64,000 bases of DNA from Escherichia coli (GTDB lineage Bacteria > Pseudomonadota > Gammaproteobacteria > Enterobacterales > Enterobacteriaceae). The notes under the pieces are model-generated. The model was not told the DNA's origin. It searched no databases and worked only from the letters and a program-made list of their open reading frames with translations. Shown piece after piece: positions 1 through 34,033 of this stretch (the stretch's first letter is position 1; every line of letters begins with the position of its first letter). The stretch lies in assembly GCF_030013595.1 (NCBI RefSeq), contig NZ_CP122768.1; one strand, given 5' to 3'. The translations under genes were made by a program, and so were the position numbers.

Positions 1-982
1 TACGCCGCCGCCGAAAATGGGGACGACGTCTACAGCTCAGCAACCGCAAATTCAGCCGGTACAGCAGCCACAAATTCAGGCAACTCAACAACCGCAAATC
101 CAGCCGGTGCAGCCAGTAGCTCAGCAGCCGGTACAGATGGAAAACGGACGCATCGTCTACAACCGTCAGTATGGGAACATTCCGAAAGGCAGTTATAGCG
201 GCAGTACCTATACCGTGAAAAAAGGCGACACACTTTTCTATATCGCCTGGATTACTGGCAACGATTTCCGTGACCTTGCTCAGCGCAACAATATTCAGGC
301 ACCATACGCGCTGAACGTCGGTCAGACCTTACAGGTGGGTAATGCTTCCGGTACGCCAATCACTGGCGGAAATGCCATTACCCAGGCCGATGCAGCAGAG
401 CAAGGAGTTGTGATCAAGCCTGCACAAAATTCCACCGTTGCTGTTGCTTCGCAACCGACAATTACGTATTCTGAGTCTTCGGGTGAACAGAGTGCTAACA
501 AAATGTTGCCGAACAACAAGCCAACTGCGACCACGGTCACAGCGCCTGTAACGGTACCAACAGCAAGCACAACCGAGCCGACTGTCAGCAGTACATCAAC
601 CAGTACGCCTATCTCCACCTGGCGCTGGCCGACTGAGGGCAAAGTGATCGAAACCTTTGGCGCTTCTGAGGGGGGCAACAAGGGGATTGATATCGCAGGC
701 AGCAAAGGACAGGCAATTATCGCGACCGCAGATGGCCGCGTTGTTTATGCCGGTAACGCACTGCGCGGCTACGGTAATCTGATTATCATCAAACATAATG
801 ATGATTACCTGAGTGCCTACGCCCATAACGACACAATGCTGGTCCGGGAACAACAAGAAGTGAAGGCGGGGCAAAAAATAGCAACCATGGGTAGCACCGG
901 AACCAGTTCAACACGCTTGCATTTTGAAATTCGTTACAAGGGGAAATCCGTAAACCCGCTGCGTTATTTGCCGCAGCGATAA
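1..982 (+). CDS. nlpD: NlpD murein hydrolase activator lipoprotein, 5' end truncated by the window edge (LysM-like segment and C-terminal M23/LytM-like domain)
   Basis: Open frame runs from the window edge to TAA at 980-982; translation ...[18 protein letters not shown]... matches NlpD as I recall it; the ATG at 17 in the ORF track is internal. Confidence 0.93.
20..140 (+). repeat. Imperfect tandem ~21-24 bp repeats encoding a Gln/Pro-rich linker (QQPQIQP units) inside nlpD
   Basis: Direct reading: repeated cag-caa/cca-ccg-caa-att-cag-ccg-gt units giving [25 protein letters not shown]. Confidence 0.45.
444..472 (+). promoter_or_regulatory. Candidate main rpoS promoter inside nlpD (-35 ttgctt 444-449, 17-bp spacer, -10 tattct 467-472)
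   Basis: Hexamers with 17-bp spacing; predicted start ~479 gives a ~566-nt leader to the rpoS ATG at 1045, matching the known long rpoS 5' UTR (from memory). Confidence 0.55.
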
Positions 983-1044
983 ATCGGCGGAACCAGGCTT
1001 TTGCTTGAATGTTCCGTCAAGGGATCACGGGTAGGAGCCACCTT

Positions 1045-2037
1045 ATGAGTCAGAATACGCTGAAAGTTCATGATTTAAATGAAGATGCGGAATTTGATGA
1101 GAACGGAGTTGAGGTTTTTGACGAAAAGGCCTTAGTAGAAGAGGAACCCAGTGATAACGATTTGGCCGAAGAGGAACTGTTATCGCAGGGAGCCACACAG
1201 CGTGTGTTGGACGCGACTCAGCTTTACCTTGGTGAGATTGGTTATTCACCACTGTTAACGGCCGAAGAAGAAGTTTATTTTGCGCGTCGCGCACTGCGTG
1301 GAGATGTTGCCTCCCGCCGCCGGATGATCGAGAGTAACTTGCGTCTGGTGGTAAAAATTGCCCGCCGTTATGGCAATCGTGGTCTGGCGTTGCTGGACCT
1401 GATCGAAGAGGGCAACCTGGGGCTGATCCGCGCGGTAGAGAAGTTTGACCCGGAACGTGGTTTCCGCTTCTCAACATACGCAACCTGGTGGATTCGCCAG
1501 ACGATTGAACGGGCGATTATGAACCAAACCCGTACTATTCGTTTGCCTATTCACATCGTAAAGGAGCTGAACGTTTACCTGCGAACCGCACGCGAGTTGT
1601 CCCATAAACTGGACCACGAACCAAGTGCGGAAGAGATCGCAGAGCAACTGGATAAGCCAGTTGATGACGTCAGCCGTATGCTTCGTCTTAACGAGCGCAT
1701 TACCTCGGTAGACACCCCGCTGGGTGGTGATTCCGAAAAAGCGTTGCTGGACATCCTGGCCGATGAAAAAGAGAACGGTCCGGAAGATACCACGCAAGAT
1801 GACGATATGAAGCAGAGCATCGTCAAATGGCTGTTCGAGCTGAACGCCAAACAGCGTGAAGTACTGGCACGTCGATTCGGTTTGCTGGGGTACGAAGCGG
1901 CAACACTGGAAGATGTAGGTCGTGAAATTGGCCTCACCCGTGAACGTGTTCGCCAGATTCAGGTTGAAGGCCTGCGCCGTTTGCGCGAAATCCTGCAAAC
2001 GCAGGGGCTGAATATCGAAGCGCTGTTCCGCGAGTAA
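1045..2037 (+). CDS. rpoS: RNA polymerase sigma factor RpoS (sigma-S/sigma-38), 330 aa
   Basis: Translation [34 protein letters not shown]... with sigma-70 family regions; the track ORF from 1009 is a 5' over-extension; codon 33 is GAG. Confidence 0.96.
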
Positions 2038-2054
2038 GTAAGCATCTGTCAGAA

Positions 2055-2089
2055 AGGCCAGTCTCAAGCGAGGCTGGCCTTTTTCTTTT
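2055..2089 (+). terminator. Intrinsic terminator downstream of rpoS
   Basis: Stem aggccag(2055-2061)/ctggcct(2074-2080) followed by tttttctttt. Confidence 0.7.
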
Positions 2090-2157
2090 GGTTGGGAAGT
2101 CGGTGTGTTTTGTCGCCTGGATAAGACTCGTCAGCGTCCTACCCGGCAATCAGCATC

Positions 2158-2565
2158 CTATTTGCTCATCATCTTGCGCACCAACTGCATAAACAGCTCC
2201 TTCTCTTCTGCACTCAAACGCCCCAAAAATTCCTCATCCACACTGTCACCAATGGGGATCGCCGCAGCAAGTACCTTTTCTCCTTCGGCAGTCAGCCAGA
2301 CAAAGCGACGCCGCTTGTCAGCGGCGTCATGTTCACGTCTGACTAAGCCACGATTTTCCATTCTTGCCAACATTTCTGCCAGCGTTGCTTTGGTGCTGAC
2401 TGCTGCTTCTATCAGTGCCACCTGTTCGATACCAGGCTTATCAGCAATGGCGCGCATCACCGCGTACTGTGGTTTGGTGAGGTCAGGTAACTCGTGCTGC
2501 CAGCGAGCCGTGTGCTGCTGAAAAAGCTGTCGTAACTGATGGAACGCTTTATTTCGTAACGCCAT
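2158..2565 (-). CDS. MarR-family winged-helix transcriptional regulator, divergent from the decarboxylase operon
   Basis: Translation MALRNKAFHQLRQLF...DKRRRFVWLTAEGEKV has a MarR-type wHTH; start chosen at ATG 2565 because of GGAG Shine-Dalgarno 6 nt upstream; the track start at 2598 lacks one. Confidence 0.8.
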   Translation of the reverse strand: MALRNKAFHQLRQLFQQHTARWQHELPDLTKPQYAVMRAIADKPGIEQVALIEAAVSTKATLAEMLARMENRGLVRREHDAADKRRRFVWLTAEGEKVLAAAIPIGDSVDEEFLGRLSAEEKELFMQLVRKMMSK

Positions 2566-2680
2566 GTAAACTCCGGGCAAACTATCTGCCGCTATCATAG
2601 CGGTTTTTCAGTGACGAAGAAGATGTTGTTACTTTTCAGTGCTTGCCGCGATGAAAACAGAGGCGTATTTTAATAATGAC

Positions 2681-2694
2681 GTTCGTATACGAAC
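2681..2694. promoter_or_regulatory. Perfect 14-bp palindrome gttcgtatacgaac, candidate operator for the adjacent MarR-type regulator
   Basis: Exact inverted repeat 18 bp upstream of the ATG at 2712, inside the divergent promoter region. Confidence 0.45.
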
Positions 2695-2711
2695 AATTAA
2701 GAGAATAAACA

Positions 2712-3305
2712 ATGAGACTGATCGTCGGGATGACAGGGGCTACCGGTGCGCCTCTTGGGGTGGCATTACTGCAAGCGCTGCGGGAGATGCCGAATGTCGA
2801 GACTCATCTGGTGATGTCGAAGTGGGCGAAAACCACTATTGAACTGGAAACGCCTTACAGCGCTCGCGATGTTGCCGCCCTCGCAGACTTCAACCATAAC
2901 CCGGCGGATCAGGCGGCGACTATCTCTTCCGGCTCCTTTCGTACCGACGGCATGATCGTTATTCCATGCAGTATGAAAACGCTCGCCGGTATCCGCGCTG
3001 GTTACGCCGATGGTCTCGTGGGGCGCGCGGCGGACGTCGTGCTCAAAGAAGGCCGCAAACTGGTGCTGGTGCCGCGTGAAATGCCGCTTAGCACAATCCA
3101 TCTCGAAAATATGCTCGCACTTTCGCGCATGGGCGTGGCGATGGTGCCGCCGATGCCTGCCTTTTATAACCATCCCGAAACGGTAGATGACATTGTCCAC
3201 CACGTGGTAGCCCGCGTGCTGGATCAATTTGGCCTCGAACATCCTCACGCCAGGCGCTGGCAAGGATTGCCGCAGGCCCGGAATTTTTCTCAGGAGAATG
3301 AATAA
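2712..3305 (+). CDS. ecdB: UbiX/Pad1-family flavin prenyltransferase, subunit B of a hydroxyarylic acid (phenolic acid) decarboxylase
   Basis: Translation MRLIVGMTGATGAPLGVALLQAL... typical of UbiX-like proteins; first gene of a B-C-D operon; symbol by analogy to ecdBCD/kpdBCD naming, as recalled. Confidence 0.85.
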   Translation: MRLIVGMTGATGAPLGVALLQALREMPNVETHLVMSKWAKTTIELETPYSARDVAALADFNHNPADQAATISSGSFRTDGMIVIPCSMKTLAGIRAGYADGLVGRAADVVLKEGRKLVLVPREMPLSTIHLENMLALSRMGVAMVPPMPAFYNHPETVDDIVHHVVARVLDQFGLEHPHARRWQGLPQARNFSQENE

Positions 3306-4732
3306 TGGCATTTGATGATTTACGCAGCTTTTTACAGGCGCTTGATGACCACGGCCAGTTACTGAAAATCAGCGAAGAGGTGAACGCGGAACCGGATCTG
3401 GCAGCCGCTGCCAACGCCACCGGACGTATCGGCGATGGTGCACCGGCGCTGTGGTTTGACAATATTCGCGGCTTTATCGATGCCCGCGTGGCAATGAATA
3501 CCATCGGTTCCTGGCAGAACCACGCGATTTCCCTCGGCCTGCCGCCAAACACCCCGGTTAAAAAGCAGATTGATGAGTTTATCCGCCGCTGGGATAACTT
3601 CCCCATTACCCCGGAGCGCCGCGCCAATCCAGCCTGGGCGCAGAACACCGTCGATGGCGACGAGATCAACCTGTTCGATATTCTGCCGCTGTTTCGTTTA
3701 AACGACGGTGATGGCGGTTTCTATCTCGATAAAGCGTGCGTGGTTTCCCGCGATCCGCTCGACCCGGATAACTTCGGCAAGCAGAACGTCGGCATCTACC
3801 GCATGGAAGTGAAGGGCAAACGTAAGCTCGGCCTGCAACCGGTGCCGATGCACGATATCGCTCTGCATCTGCATAAAGCGGAAGAACGCGGTGAAGATCT
3901 GCCGATTGCCATCACCCTGGGTAACGATCCGATCATCACCCTGATGGGCGCCACGCCGCTGAAATACGATCAGTCTGAGTACGAAATGGCGGGCGCGCTG
4001 CGCGAAAGCCCGTACCCGATCGCCACCGCCCCGCTGACCGGTTTTGATGTGCCGTGGGGCTCGGAAGTGATCCTCGAAGGGGTTATCGAAAGTCGTAAAC
4101 GTGAGATTGAAGGGCCGTTCGGTGAGTTTACCGGTCACTACTCCGGCGGGCGTAACATGACCGTGGTGCGTATCGATAAAGTCTCTTACCGTACCAAACC
4201 GATTTTCGAATCGCTCTATCTTGGTATGCCGTGGACCGAAATCGACTACCTGATGGGGCCTGCCACCTGCGTGCCGCTGTATCAGCAACTGAAAGCCGAG
4301 TTCCCGGAAGTGCAGGCGGTAAACGCCATGTACACCCACGGCCTGTTGGCGATTATCTCCACCAAAAAACGCTACGGCGGCTTTGCCCGCGCGGTGGGCC
4401 TGCGTGCAATGACCACGCCGCACGGTCTGGGCTACGTGAAGATGGTGATTATGGTCGATGAAGACGTTGATCCGTTCAACCTGCCGCAGGTGATGTGGGC
4501 GCTCTCCTCGAAAGTGAACCCGGCAGGCGACCTGGTGCAGTTGCCAAATATGTCCGTGCTGGAACTCGACCCTGGCTCAAGCCCGGCGGGGATCACCGAC
4601 AAGCTGATTATCGACGCCACCACGCCTGTCGCCCCGGACAACCGTGGTCACTACAGCCAGCCGGTGGTGGATTTACCGGAAACCAAAGCCTGGGCTGAAA
4701 AACTGACTGCTATGCTGGCCGCACGTAAATAA
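3305..4732 (+). CDS. ecdC: UbiD-family decarboxylase, catalytic subunit C of a hydroxyarylic acid decarboxylase
   Basis: 475-aa ORF with UbiD-like sequence; start overlaps the upstream stop (ATAATGG), indicating translational coupling. Confidence 0.85.
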   Translation: MAFDDLRSFLQALDDHGQLLKISEEVNAEPDLAAAANATGRIGDGAPALWFDNIRGFIDARVAMNTIGSWQNHAISLGLPPNTPVKKQIDEFIRRWDNFPITPERRANPAWAQNTVDGDEINLFDILPLFRLNDGDGGFYLDKACVVSRDPLDPDNFGKQNVGIYRMEVKGKRKLGLQPVPMHDIALHLHKAEERGEDLPIAITLGNDPIITLMGATPLKYDQSEYEMAGALRESPYPIATAPLTGFDVPWGSEVILEGVIESRKREIEGPFGEFTGHYSGGRNMTVVRIDKVSYRTKPIFESLYLGMPWTEIDYLMGPATCVPLYQQLKAEFPEVQAVNAMYTHGLLAIISTKKRYGGFARAVGLRAMTTPHGLGYVKMVIMVDEDVDPFNLPQVMWALSSKVNPAGDLVQLPNMSVLELDPGSSPAGITDKLIIDATTPVAPDNRGHYSQPVVDLPETKAWAEKLTAMLAARK

Positions 4733-28914: not shown

Positions 28915-29377
28915 CGTTTTACTCTGTGTTGGCAATAGCATGATGGGCGATGATGGCGCAGGCCCGCTACTGGCGGAAAAGTGCGCCGCCGCGCCGAAAG
29001 GTCACTGGGTGGTGATTGACGGCGGTAGTGCACCGGAAAACGACATTGTCGCTATTCGCGAACTGCGCCCGACACGACTGCTGATTGTCGACGCCACGGA
29101 TATGGGGCTAAACCCCGGCGAGATCCGCATCATCGATCCGGATGATATCGCCGAGATGTTTATGATGACTACCCATAACATGCCGTTGAACTACCTTATC
29201 GACCAGTTAAAAGAAGACATTGGCGAAGTGATTTTCCTCGGCATCCAGCCGGATATCGTCGGCTTTTACTACCCGATGACCCAGCCGATTAAAGATGCGG
29301 TAGAAACCGTTTATCAACGACTGGAAGGCTGGGAAGGGAATGGCGGATTCGCGCAGTTAGCGGTGGAAGAAGAGTAG
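28907..29377 (+). CDS. hycI: Hydrogenase 3 maturation endopeptidase HycI
   Basis: 156-aa [23 protein letters not shown]... Confidence 0.93.
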   Translation: MTDVLLCVGNSMMGDDGAGPLLAEKCAAAPKGHWVVIDGGSAPENDIVAIRELRPTRLLIVDATDMGLNPGEIRIIDPDDIAEMFMMTTHNMPLNYLIDQLKEDIGEVIFLGIQPDIVGFYYPMTQPIKDAVETVYQRLEGWEGNGGFAQLAVEEE

Positions 29378-29401
29378 TTTTTCAGTAAGGAATTCAGGGG
29401 A

Positions 29402-30175
29402 TTGAACATCAGAACAGGGATGTGCGCTTTTTTATTGAGCTTAGTGCTGCCTGCACAGGCCACCAGCTTTACCGAATATCTGCCGATGAGTGACAGCGAA
29501 TACGCGCAAAAGCGGGCGCTGAAACCTCTCCTGACCATGCCTTATGATGCCGAGCAAAACTGGCATTTTAGAAAAGTCGGCGTTGCTGGCGTGACGCTTG
29601 AAAAGATGCCAAATGATGATAGTGAATGGCAATTGAACGGTAAAGATCGCGCCGGTAAATCCTGGTCTGTGCCTGTGGGGGTGCTGCAAAATATGGCGGG
29701 TAATGCGCAACTTTACCGTGCCGATCTTGATCGTAACGGCATTCAGGATCTAGTTATCTGGCGGGGTATTTCAGGAAATGGTCTGGCACCTAACGCGTTT
29801 TTGATTCTGATGACCTTTAATCAGCAAGGTCGCCCGTGTGTTTTTCAGTCCGATGGTTTTTATACCGCAAGTGAAACTGGCATTGATGATTTGCTGGATT
29901 TACAAAGGAATGGCCACACGCAATTGCTGGATATGCAGTTTGATTCCGGTTACTGGATAACCAGTCTGTATCAGGTAAAAGACGCCAAATGGCAGCGTGT
30001 TCACGGCTGGTTTGGCAAGTTAAGCTATCCCGCGCTCACGCGTTTTACTTATACCCCCAACCGTAAACTCGTCCTCAAACCCATCGCCGGGCGCGACCCG
30101 CAATCGGAAGATCTGGCGCTGACGCAGCGTTGCTTGATAAAGGGGGATGTGCTTTATGGGGTGAATCAGAACTGA
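29402..30175 (+). CDS. Uncharacterised predicted secreted protein (~257 aa) with N-terminal signal peptide and two Asp-rich D-x-D/Q-x-N-G loops
   Basis: n-region with Arg, hydrophobic core CAFLLSLVL, AQA|TS cleavage site; motifs ADLDRNGIQDLVIW and LDLQRNGHTQLLD; start ambiguous between TTG 29402 and ATG 29420; only 24 bp after the hycI stop with no terminator. Confidence 0.6.
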   Translation: MNIRTGMCAFLLSLVLPAQATSFTEYLPMSDSEYAQKRALKPLLTMPYDAEQNWHFRKVGVAGVTLEKMPNDDSEWQLNGKDRAGKSWSVPVGVLQNMAGNAQLYRADLDRNGIQDLVIWRGISGNGLAPNAFLILMTFNQQGRPCVFQSDGFYTASETGIDDLLDLQRNGHTQLLDMQFDSGYWITSLYQVKDAKWQRVHGWFGKLSYPALTRFTYTPNRKLVLKPIAGRDPQSEDLALTQRCLIKGDVLYGVNQN

Positions 30176-30237
30176 CTTTTTGCAGAGTGGCTATGTGGAT
30201 TTTGGGGGTAATTATATAGCGTACAAGTGTTTACATA

Positions 30238-30266
30238 TTGTGAACTTTGATTTGATGAGCTATAGT
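30238..30266 (+). promoter_or_regulatory. Candidate sigma-70 promoter for the HigBA-like pair (-35 ttgtga, 17-bp spacer, -10 tatagt)
   Basis: Hexamers in an AT-rich spacer ~70 bp upstream of the toxin ATG. Confidence 0.4.
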
Positions 30267-30336
30267 TTCCGAACACATAAGGATAGAACTCGCAGATGTG
30301 GCTGTTTACTTACTATAAGGAAGTTAAAACTTAAAA

Positions 30337-30648
30337 ATGCACATCATTTCTAAAGCGCCATTTGAAGAGTGTGCGCGCAAATATCCTAACGACGCTCTGG
30401 CTCTACACTCATTGTATCGGGTTATTAAGGAAACGGATTTTTCTACACCAGAAGAAATGCGAACGGCGTTTCCCAACCTCGACAATTTTAGATATCGCAA
30501 CAAATGGTACGTTCTGGATGTCGGCGGGAACAATCTTAGGGTTATTGCCTACATAAACTTTGTTAATAAGCGGTTCTTTGTGAAGCACATAACGAATCAC
30601 GCAGAGTATGACAAACTGACACGTTACTACAGAGAGAACAAAGAATGA
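30337..30648 (+). CDS. HigB-family type II toxin (RelE/ParE-fold mRNA interferase), 103 aa
   Basis: MHIISKAPFEECARKYP...FPNLDNFRYRNKWYVLDVGGNNLRVIAYI... resembles HigB/YgjN-type toxins; toxin gene precedes the antitoxin with a 4-bp ATGA overlap. Confidence 0.8.
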   Translation: MHIISKAPFEECARKYPNDALALHSLYRVIKETDFSTPEEMRTAFPNLDNFRYRNKWYVLDVGGNNLRVIAYINFVNKRFFVKHITNHAEYDKLTRYYRENKE

Positions 30649-31064
30649 CTGCTAATGCTGCACGCGCTGTTAAAGCAACAAGAGAACTGGTCAATGCAGT
30701 CCCCTTTCTGGGAGGTAGTGACTCAGAAGATGATTATCGTGAAGCACTGGAACTGGTCGAATATTTGATTGAAGAAGATGACACCAATCCACTTATCGAC
30801 TTTCTGGCGAGCCGCATTGCAGAGTATGAAAGCAACAACGAAAAGTTTGCAGAGTTCGACAAAGCCGTTGCTGCAATGCCGGTTGGCGTGGCGTTACTTC
30901 GTACGCTGATTGATCAACATAATCTGACCTACGCGGATTTGAAGAACGAAATCGGCTCTAAATCCCTGGTCAGTCAGATTTTGTCTGGGCAACGATCCCT
31001 GACGATATCCCACATTAAGGCACTTTCAGCCCGATTTGGTGTTAAGCCGGAATGGTTTCTTTGA
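30645..31064 (+). CDS. HigA-family antitoxin (XRE-type HTH at the C-terminus), 139 aa
   Basis: ...GSKSLVSQILSGQRSLTISHIKALSARFGV... HTH segment; translationally coupled to the upstream toxin. Confidence 0.8.
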   Translation: MTANAARAVKATRELVNAVPFLGGSDSEDDYREALELVEYLIEEDDTNPLIDFLASRIAEYESNNEKFAEFDKAVAAMPVGVALLRTLIDQHNLTYADLKNEIGSKSLVSQILSGQRSLTISHIKALSARFGVKPEWFL

Positions 31065-31090
31065 TTTTGACTGATGCCAAACCCAAGATT

Positions 31091-31120
31091 GCCCGATGCG
31101 CAACGCTTATCGGGCTTTCT
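31091..31120. terminator. Bidirectional hairpin terminator between the HigA-like gene and convergent ascB
   Basis: Stem gcccgat/atcgggc (31091-31115) followed by tttctt; A-rich on the opposite side. Confidence 0.6.
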
Positions 31121-31142
31121 TGGTTCGTGCGACGGTAGTTAC

Positions 31143-34033
<2,891 letters not shown>

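Follow-up and report, generated by a model that had tools for sequence, protein, structure and literature searches.

Our analysis of a 64,000-nucleotide stretch of Escherichia coli DNA (contig NZ_CP122768.1; the whole stretch is called the window below) indicates that two overlapping genes in the spacer between hycI and ascB very probably form a type II toxin-antitoxin operon that is complete, accessory and located on the chromosome, and that belongs to the PF09907 HigB/two-domain HigA family as its third enterobacterial lineage. Judged by sequence comparison, this lineage stands beside K-12 higBA (ygjNM) and Salmonella sehAB, with its toxin on the SehA side. The pair is already recognized by annotation pipelines and is an ordinary member of a known family. 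The gene structure and family of the pair, the conservation of its residues and of its operator, the co-variation of the operator with the antitoxin and the distribution of the locus in the E. coli population were all observed directly.

Gene structure and family assignment

An original prediction, made from the letters of the window, had described a 103-residue toxin followed by a 139-residue antitoxin with a 4-base ATGA overlap, and this arrangement is confirmed. The toxin gene (30337-30648) and the antitoxin gene (30645-31064) both lie on the plus strand and start with ATG, and the four shared bases come from the TGA of higB (30646-30648) and the ATG of higA (30645-30647). The same prediction placed the pair at a second locus, away from the K-12 higBA genes, and this holds as well: the window pair sits between hycI and ascB, whereas K-12 higBA lies between fadH and rlmG. 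It is the sole PF09907 pair within the window. Between genera, the nonsynonymous divergence (dN) of higB and higA is about 0.15 while the synonymous divergence (dS) is saturated, and therefore both open reading frames (ORFs) are real genes under purifying selection.

The assignment to a HigB-like toxin of RelE fold and a HigA-like antitoxin with a helix-turn-helix of the Xre type proved correct. The toxin matches Pfam PF09907 (HigB_toxin) over residues 22-93 with an E-value of 1.2e-22, and residues 85-138 of the antitoxin match Pfam HTH_3 with an E-value of 8e-9. When both proteins were compared by phmmer with all PDB chains, the best match of the toxin was K-12 HigB (5IFG_A, E 2e-21, residues 1-100) and that of the antitoxin was K-12 HigA (5IFG_B, E 3e-35, residues 9-138); the matches were limited to HigB and HigA of E. 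coli K-12 and Shigella (5IFG, 6KML, 5YCL) and extended over about the whole length of the proteins. Identity to the K-12 proteins is 37.5% for the toxin and 46% for the antitoxin. RefSeq labels the identical genes "type II toxin-antitoxin system HigB family toxin" and "helix-turn-helix domain-containing protein". Alignment with the family showed the invariant residues of the toxin to be intact: it keeps LDNF at 48-51 and also H2, K56, R68, H88, E90-Y91-D92 and R99, the latter set being common to the window toxin, SehA and K-12 HigB. Thus, a RelE-like toxin of PF09907, an antitoxin with an N-terminal toxin-binding and dimerization domain and a C-terminal Xre helix-turn-helix, a toxin-first operon and a predicted palindromic operator, which together characterize the HigB/HigA family, are all found at this locus.

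The solved K-12 system (YgjN/YgjM; PDB 5IFG, 6KML) shares with the window pair its fold, the toxin-first order, the 4-base overlap and the domain order of the antitoxin, in which the N-terminal dimerization and toxin-binding part precedes the C-terminal helix-turn-helix. The K-12 promoter also bears palindromic operators; however, their half-site is GTTGCCA, unlike that of the window.

Relation to Salmonella SehAB

On the aligned sequences, the closest characterized relative of the toxin is SehA and not K-12 HigB. The toxin of the window aligns gap-free with SehA at 56.3% identity, and SehA and K-12 HigB are 39.4% identical to each other, in agreement with the published 40%. The toxicity of SehA needs Y53, D61, H88, Y91, K93, T95, Y97 and Y98 (PMC12817084), and all eight are present at the same positions of the window toxin, whereas K-12 HigB is without four of them (D61, K93, Y97 and Y98). 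The antitoxin is roughly equidistant from both known lineages (44% identity to SehB against the 46% to K-12 HigA), and it keeps all eight SehB residues that matter for repression (PMC7160566), namely Y31, L41, L50, I58, S105, L119, L127 and F138.

SehA and SehB (STM4031/STM4030.S) resemble the window pair in further respects: the toxin is likewise a PF09907 protein of 103 residues, the genes are toxin-first and overlapping, and palindromes of the 7-3-7 type surround the -35 and -10 elements. On the other hand, sehAB occupies the fdhE-yiiD site beside sehCD, SehB has 142 residues, its recognition helix GSKSNVSNILNGRR goes with the half-site GTTTTCA where the window antitoxin has GSKSLVSQILSGQR with GTTTACA, and sehAB has two operators where the window has one intact. 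The window pair is therefore found neither at the fdhE-yiiD site next to sehCD nor with an antitoxin and operator of the SehB type, and the different site, the modest identity to SehB and the different helix and half-site together make it a paralogous lineage rather than a sehAB ortholog.

The sehAB sequence used here was taken from a Salmonella Infantis contig (L104) that is filed in a phage collection and carries cross-references to STM4031, STM4030 and STM4033. This contig shows the published layout of sehDC, a hydrolase gene and sehAB, flanked by fdoHI-fdhE and yiiD. The scan of genome contigs for relatives covered the best 80 loci, and Salmonella LT2 was not in those 80. The members of the Salmonella toxin cluster were considered as SehA and rejected, since these copies proved to be sporadic and to reside in prophages. 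The name sehAB comes from a 2013 paper in PLoS Pathogens (De la Cruz et al., PMC3868539), which is flagged as retracted and on which later SehB/SehA papers build; we used it solely for gene names and locus tags, and statements resting on it need independent support.

Predicted operator, promoter and recognition helix

Upstream of higB a 7-3-7 palindrome (O1) encloses the -35 hexamer, TTGTGA, of a sigma-70-like promoter. The promoter scan matched 9 of the 12 consensus positions, and the -10 hexamer aligns with a conserved (C)TATAGT or TATCAT that is placed between two operators in related loci. The clade consensus GTTYACANNNTGTRAAC has a single match in the 64 kb of the window, which is O1 itself with no mismatches, while 0.04 matches are expected by chance. 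More than 20 species have the O1 palindrome ahead of their homologous pairs, and its distance from the -10 element is fixed. A common design emerges from 25 homologous upstream regions: O1, GTT(T/C)ACA-TAT-TGTAAAC, about 73 nucleotides before the ATG, then the -10 element TATAGT or TATCAT, and then a second operator (O2), GTT(T/C)ACA-TAA-TGTAAAC, about 35 nucleotides before the ATG. The O2 of the relatives, GTTYACATAATGTAAAC-GGATGGAAC, follows directly after the -10 element. In the window the left half-site of O2 is mutated and the right one (TGTAAAC) is missing, and the distance from O1 to the ATG is 108 nucleotides against 73 in the relatives.

The half-site changes together with the recognition helix of the antitoxin. 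Helix GSKSLVSQILSGQR is paired with GTTTACA in the window clade, GSKSNVSNILNGRR with GTTTTCA in Salmonella SehB and in Serratia and Citrobacter pairs, and GSKSMVSRVLSGKR with GTTGCCA in K-12 HigA. The matched sets themselves read SLVSQILSGQR/GTTTACA at 30229-30245 of the window, SNVSNILNGRR/GTTTTCA at about 3427-3481 of L104 and SMVSRVLSGKR/GTTGCCA at about 3465-3517 (minus strand) of L006. The three sets suggest a simple specificity code at half-site positions 4-5. Since O1 is conserved across species and co-varies with the recognition helix, the palindrome is likely the HigA operator; there is good comparative evidence for this, and also for the notion that the paralogous systems would be insulated from one another.

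The remodeled leader of higB

The segment between the promoter and higB has been rebuilt in E. coli. After CGCAGATG at position 30296 the window carries 41 nucleotides that are absent from other genera and that hold both a short upstream ORF and a distant Shine-Dalgarno motif. It appears from the alignment that the ancestral higB start codon now opens this putative upstream ORF of 12 codons, the stop of which lies 2 nucleotides before the higB ATG. AAGGAAG is the only Shine-Dalgarno-like motif ahead of that ATG. The original prediction had called its spacing of about 13 nucleotides unusually long; the spacing is real, but it is not peculiar to this strain, since the remodeled leader is common to 747 genomes. 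The idea that the 8 extra nucleotides before the ATG are a recent duplication in the window strain was rejected, as they are a fixed feature of the major allele class. An alternative E. coli allele (L004 type, 343 genomes) is without 8 of the 41 leader nucleotides and has a normal spacing of 5. In a rare allele (L103; NZ_LR536431.1, 997-1338) an 11-nucleotide deletion fuses the upstream ORF in frame to higB, and the product of 113 amino acids has the invariant Met1-His2 replaced by MWLFTYYKEVKN; RefSeq still labels it a HigB family toxin. A scan of 29300-31300 against Rfam gave no match at E-values up to 1, and the fold of the leader RNA was no better than that of shuffled sequence (z = +1.1). 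Thus we propose no riboregulatory element. The features of the locus are collected in Table 1.

Table 1. Features at and around the higBA-like pair, in window coordinates.
Feature	Position	Strand	Description
Operator O1, predicted HigA site	30229..30245	.	7-3-7 palindrome GTTTACATATTGTGAAC = GTTTACA-TAT-TGTGAAC
Sigma-70-like promoter	30238..30266	+	-35 TTGTGA 30238-30243, 17-nucleotide spacer, -10 TATAGT 30261-30266; consensus match
Decayed operator O2 and ancestral leader	30267..30289	+	TTCCGAACACATAA|GGATAGAAC
Upstream ORF (putative)	30296..30334	+	12 codons MWLFTYYKEVKT, stop TAA; starts at ancestral start-codon context CGCAGATG
Shine-Dalgarno AAGGAAG	30317..30323	+	13 nucleotides before higB ATG, inside upstream ORF
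higB-like toxin gene	30337..30648	+	103 amino acids, Pfam PF09907
higA-like antitoxin/repressor gene	30645..31064	+	139 amino acids; N-terminal toxin-binding/dimerization domain and C-terminal HTH_3
Hairpin, candidate terminator	31091..31115	.	G+C-rich GCCCGAT-(11 nucleotides)-ATCGGGC, then TTTCTT

Distribution and erosion in the E. coli population

Of 5,426 complete E. coli genomes, 2,508 have at least a part of the locus, always in a single copy and always on the chromosome. The promoter of the window type occurs in 747 genomes and the alternative promoter without ORF257, the upstream neighbor of higB, in 343; intact pairs amount to about 1,090 genomes (20%). About 1,420 genomes (26%) have kept higA while higB is reduced to its last 30-40 nucleotides. 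These toxin-less alleles arose from two different deletions, one of the strain 536 type (about 834 genomes) and one of the 07-4299 type (about 584, a figure obtained by subtraction because the junction query was inflated by the joining of separate pieces). The orphan antitoxin (WP_000126294.1) is identical to the antitoxin of intact pairs, and the orphan alleles no longer have the native promoter.

A spacer of the K-12 type is present in about 2,430 genomes (45%). In K-12 only 158 bp separate ascB and hycI, and comparison of the MG1655 spacer (L005, 2916-3073) with window positions 29378-31142 shows that what remains of ORF257 is its first few and last few bases, which abut the sequence just 3' of higA. 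The retention of both ends of ORF257 means that this spacer is a deletion scar and not an empty site, and thus the K-12 state is derived and not ancestral. Taken as a whole, the pair seems to have resided in the hycI-ascB spacer for long and to have been eroded there repeatedly, usually with the toxin lost first.

One E. coli record of a plasmid collection, NZ_CP134663.1 (H65/H80, 4.9 Mb), has a 99% identical copy of the locus. The record is almost certainly that of a misfiled chromosome and not a case of plasmid carriage.

The upstream neighbor and the flanks

The gene order in the window is hycE, hycF, hycG, hycH, hycI (end 29377), ORF257, higB, higA and ascB (31143-32567, minus strand, convergent with higA), after which ascF and ascG follow. 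ORF257 (29402-30175; the RefSeq start is 29420) encodes 251-257 amino acids with a signal-peptide-like N-terminus, MCAFLLSLVLPAQA|TS, and gave no match in Pfam, NCBIfam, PHROGs or PADLOC. Its amino acid identity between E. coli strains is 87-90%, so that it is far more divergent than the neighboring genes.

The original prediction had suggested that the pair may stabilize this adjacent secreted cargo. ORF257 and the pair are indeed adjacent on the same strand, and the promoter type that follows ORF257 is that of the 747 genomes mentioned above. However, the survey of alleles separates the two: ORF257 occurs without higB in alleles of the 07-4299 type, higBA occurs without ORF257 in those of the L004 type, and each is thus found alone in many strains. 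Beside the pair no ORF257 homolog was found in about 90 loci from other genera. The K-12 scar indicates that ORF257 and the pair were lost together or in succession, and a single-copy chromosomal locus does not segregate from the cell as a plasmid does. The independent occurrence of ORF257 and the pair removes the idea of cargo stabilization, which we regard as extremely improbable.

On the other side of the pair, the hairpin downstream of higA is kept in all alleles, that of K-12 included. The terminator scan did not call it, as its loop is longer than 8 nucleotides, and with low confidence we note it as a possible terminator common to the higA side and to the convergent ascB. In the stretch between higA and ascB (window 31065-31142 compared with L002, L003 and L005) the number of copies of the GCCGGATAAGGCGTTCACGCCGCATCCGGCA element, which resembles a repetitive extragenic palindrome, is 0 in the window and 1 or 2 in other strains. 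In strain UPEC 26-1 (L102; NZ_CP016497.1, 1850-1939) the gene 3' of higA is annotated to encode the hypothetical protein WP_000536064.1 in place of ascB, which points to a further rearrangement on the asc side of the locus.

Relatives on mobile elements and possible roles

Toxins of 103 residues with 60-79% identity to the window toxin are accompanied by antitoxins of 139 residues in Leclercia, Yokenella, Mangrovibacter, Pantoea, Kluyvera, Klebsiella, Kosakonia, Cronobacter, Hafnia, Xenorhabdus and Photorhabdus, and remoter relatives occur in marine gammaproteobacteria and Burkholderiaceae. Homologs were found on 1,040 plasmids, about 520 of them at 60-80% identity, and this latter set consists mostly of large plasmids of Klebsiella pneumoniae (76.7%) and of Leclercia or Enterobacter (77.7%). 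Escherichia plasmids gave 63 matches, and the one sampled had 50% identity. The copy of Cronobacter phage JK004 is 75.7% identical. In Salmonella enterica the copies (66-68%) are sporadic and reside in lambdoid prophages, directly 3' of a cI-like repressor gene or near Cro, YdaS or YdaT. A holin-like gene is found nearby in some of the Salmonella prophage homologs (L013, L015 and L016, 3534-4312 region; L007-L009; L097-L099). Accessory or exclusion genes of prophages typically occupy such places. The higBA of IncC plasmids was considered as a relative and rejected, as it belongs to a different family, nearest to that of Acinetobacter pAB120.

The window clade thus has a strong link to mobile elements. 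The recognition helix GSKSLVSQILSGQR and the operator consensus of the window recur in most of the examined relatives on chromosomes and in prophages, and a C-terminal motif of the toxin, HAEYDKLTRYYRE(N/T)KE, is nearly invariant through the enterobacterial clade. The relatives on plasmids and prophages have toxins 66-78% identical to that of the window and antitoxins of 139 residues; they travel with mobile elements, and in most cases both operators (at -73 and -35) are present. The window copy, in contrast, has a fixed place between housekeeping operons, its O2 is lost and its leader bears the 41-nucleotide insertion with the upstream ORF.

One would argue from these relatives that the pair is not a stress or stabilization module but serves abortive infection and phage exclusion, or competition between mobile elements. 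The Salmonella homologs occupy the classic accessory-gene position in lambdoid prophages, a phage of Cronobacter carries a copy, and the PADLOC profiles of PD-lambda-2 match both the toxin (component A, E 2e-15) and the antitoxin (N-terminal part of component B, E 4e-14). PD-lambda-2 is a validated anti-phage system of three genes, which comprises a HigB-like A, a HigA-peptidase fusion B that is itself the toxic part, and a P4-antitoxin-like C that is needed for defense (Vassallo et al., 2022; PMC9519451). However, the profile of component B has 402 positions with a C-terminal peptidase, while the window antitoxin of 139 residues matches positions 9-115 of it; it has no peptidase domain, and no third gene stands before ascB in the window. 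Additionally, the locus lies between housekeeping operons and outside any prophage or defense island, and so frequent a loss of the toxin would hardly be expected under strong selection for defense. We consider a phage-exclusion role unlikely.

The alleles without the toxin lend themselves to another explanation, namely that the chromosomal copy is a decaying selfish remnant, the lasting value of which, if any, would reside in an antitoxin that could neutralize and co-repress the related toxins of incoming plasmids and prophages. The retention of higA without higB after two different deletions, the identity of the orphan protein to that of intact pairs, the many plasmid homologs and the helix and operator consensus shared by most of the examined chromosomal and prophage relatives all speak for such anti-addiction. 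However, the orphan alleles have lost the native promoter and their expression would need read-through, cross-neutralization would have to work at about 77% toxin identity, the matches on Escherichia plasmids are few and the sampled one is distant, and the identity of the orphan protein may simply reflect a recent deletion. This explanation is, in our judgment, rather doubtful. For what we consider in the first place a toxin-antitoxin operon of the HigB/HigA family, the possible roles are those of a selfish element in decay, of an anti-addiction antitoxin and of a phage-exclusion module.

Mechanism and molecular target

From the solved structure of the K-12 HigBA complex and from the work on SehAB we infer, by homology, the toxicity, the neutralization, the DNA binding and the molecular target of the pair. 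A HigA dimer would bind the O1 palindrome via its C-terminal helix-turn-helix and would repress the promoter whose -35 element lies within it, while the N-terminal domain of HigA would clamp HigB and neutralize the toxin. Upon depletion of HigA, free HigB would shut down translation and cause growth arrest. The target may be either mRNA, which would be cleaved in dependence on translation as by K-12 HigB, or the RNase III-dependent maturation of rRNA, which would be blocked as by SehA.

The second option deserves attention because of the relation to SehA. This HigB-like Salmonella toxin has been reported to have no RNase activity of its own, to bind the double-stranded RNA-binding domain of RNase III and to inhibit the processing of the rRNA leader, with RNase III inhibited in vitro (PMC12817084, 2026). 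By analogy, the window toxin would be no ribonuclease and would slow ribosome assembly and growth by blocking this processing. The toxin is nearer to SehA than to K-12 HigB, it keeps all eight alanine-sensitive SehA residues, including K93, Y97 and Y98 of the C-terminal helix, which K-12 HigB is without, and the HAEYDKLTRYYRE(N/T)KE motif almost does not vary in the enterobacterial clade. However, the SehA mechanism rests on a single study, and its RNase test was done in vitro on naked RNA, a substrate that ribosome-dependent toxins leave uncut. The substitutions Y53A and Y91A abolish the toxicity of SehA yet leave its RNase III binding. The basic and aromatic set expected of a RelE-fold RNase site is common to all three toxins (that of the window, SehA and K-12 HigB), K-12 HigB cuts translated mRNA in vivo (PMC2814082), and the C-terminal helix is not peculiar to SehA, as the SehA preprint modeled this helix on K-12 HigB. 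Inhibition of RNase III by a SehA-like toxin is thus a tentative proposal that we hold to be somewhat unlikely. Given the shared invariant residues, the presence of the C-terminal helix in K-12 HigB and the mRNA cleavage by the latter, sequence alone cannot decide the target, and we place mRNA cleavage slightly ahead of RNase III inhibition. A wider proposal, that all members of the enterobacterial clade with HAEYDKLTRYYRE, whether on chromosomes, plasmids or prophages, inhibit RNase III in the manner of SehA and are no mRNA interferases, and that the toxin-less higA alleles are kept as anti-addiction immunity against the plasmid and prophage copies, with which they have operator and recognition helix in common, is quite improbable.

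Weighing the assignment and its meaning

Several points weigh against the reading of the pair as a complete type II toxin-antitoxin operon of this family. NCBIfam holds no model matching the toxin or the antitoxin, and a search of the literature found no publication on the E. coli hycI-ascB pair and no experiment on it. With the second operator decayed in E. coli, autoregulation may be abnormal, and with a Shine-Dalgarno spacing of 13 nucleotides the same may be true of toxin expression. Within E. coli one comparison of toxins gave a dN/dS near 0.8, with very few changes behind the figure. The toxin was deleted twice independently and the whole pair was lost in the K-12 type, as would be expected of a module from which the host gains little. 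Finally, the two characterized relatives are reported to act differently, and the target is therefore not readable by homology.

The pair, which we still regard as very probably a HigB/HigA operon, is of interest in three respects. Since it is related to SehA and comes from E. coli, it could reveal whether inhibition of RNase III extends beyond Salmonella or whether the PF09907 toxins are all mRNA interferases. The helix and half-site code GTTnnCA, followed over three paralogous lineages, would explain how modules of the HigBA type coexist without cross-talk. The hycI-ascB spacer presents the stages of decay side by side, from the intact pair through the toxin-less antitoxin to the scar, and is thus suited for the study of toxin-antitoxin erosion and of the retention of orphan antitoxins.

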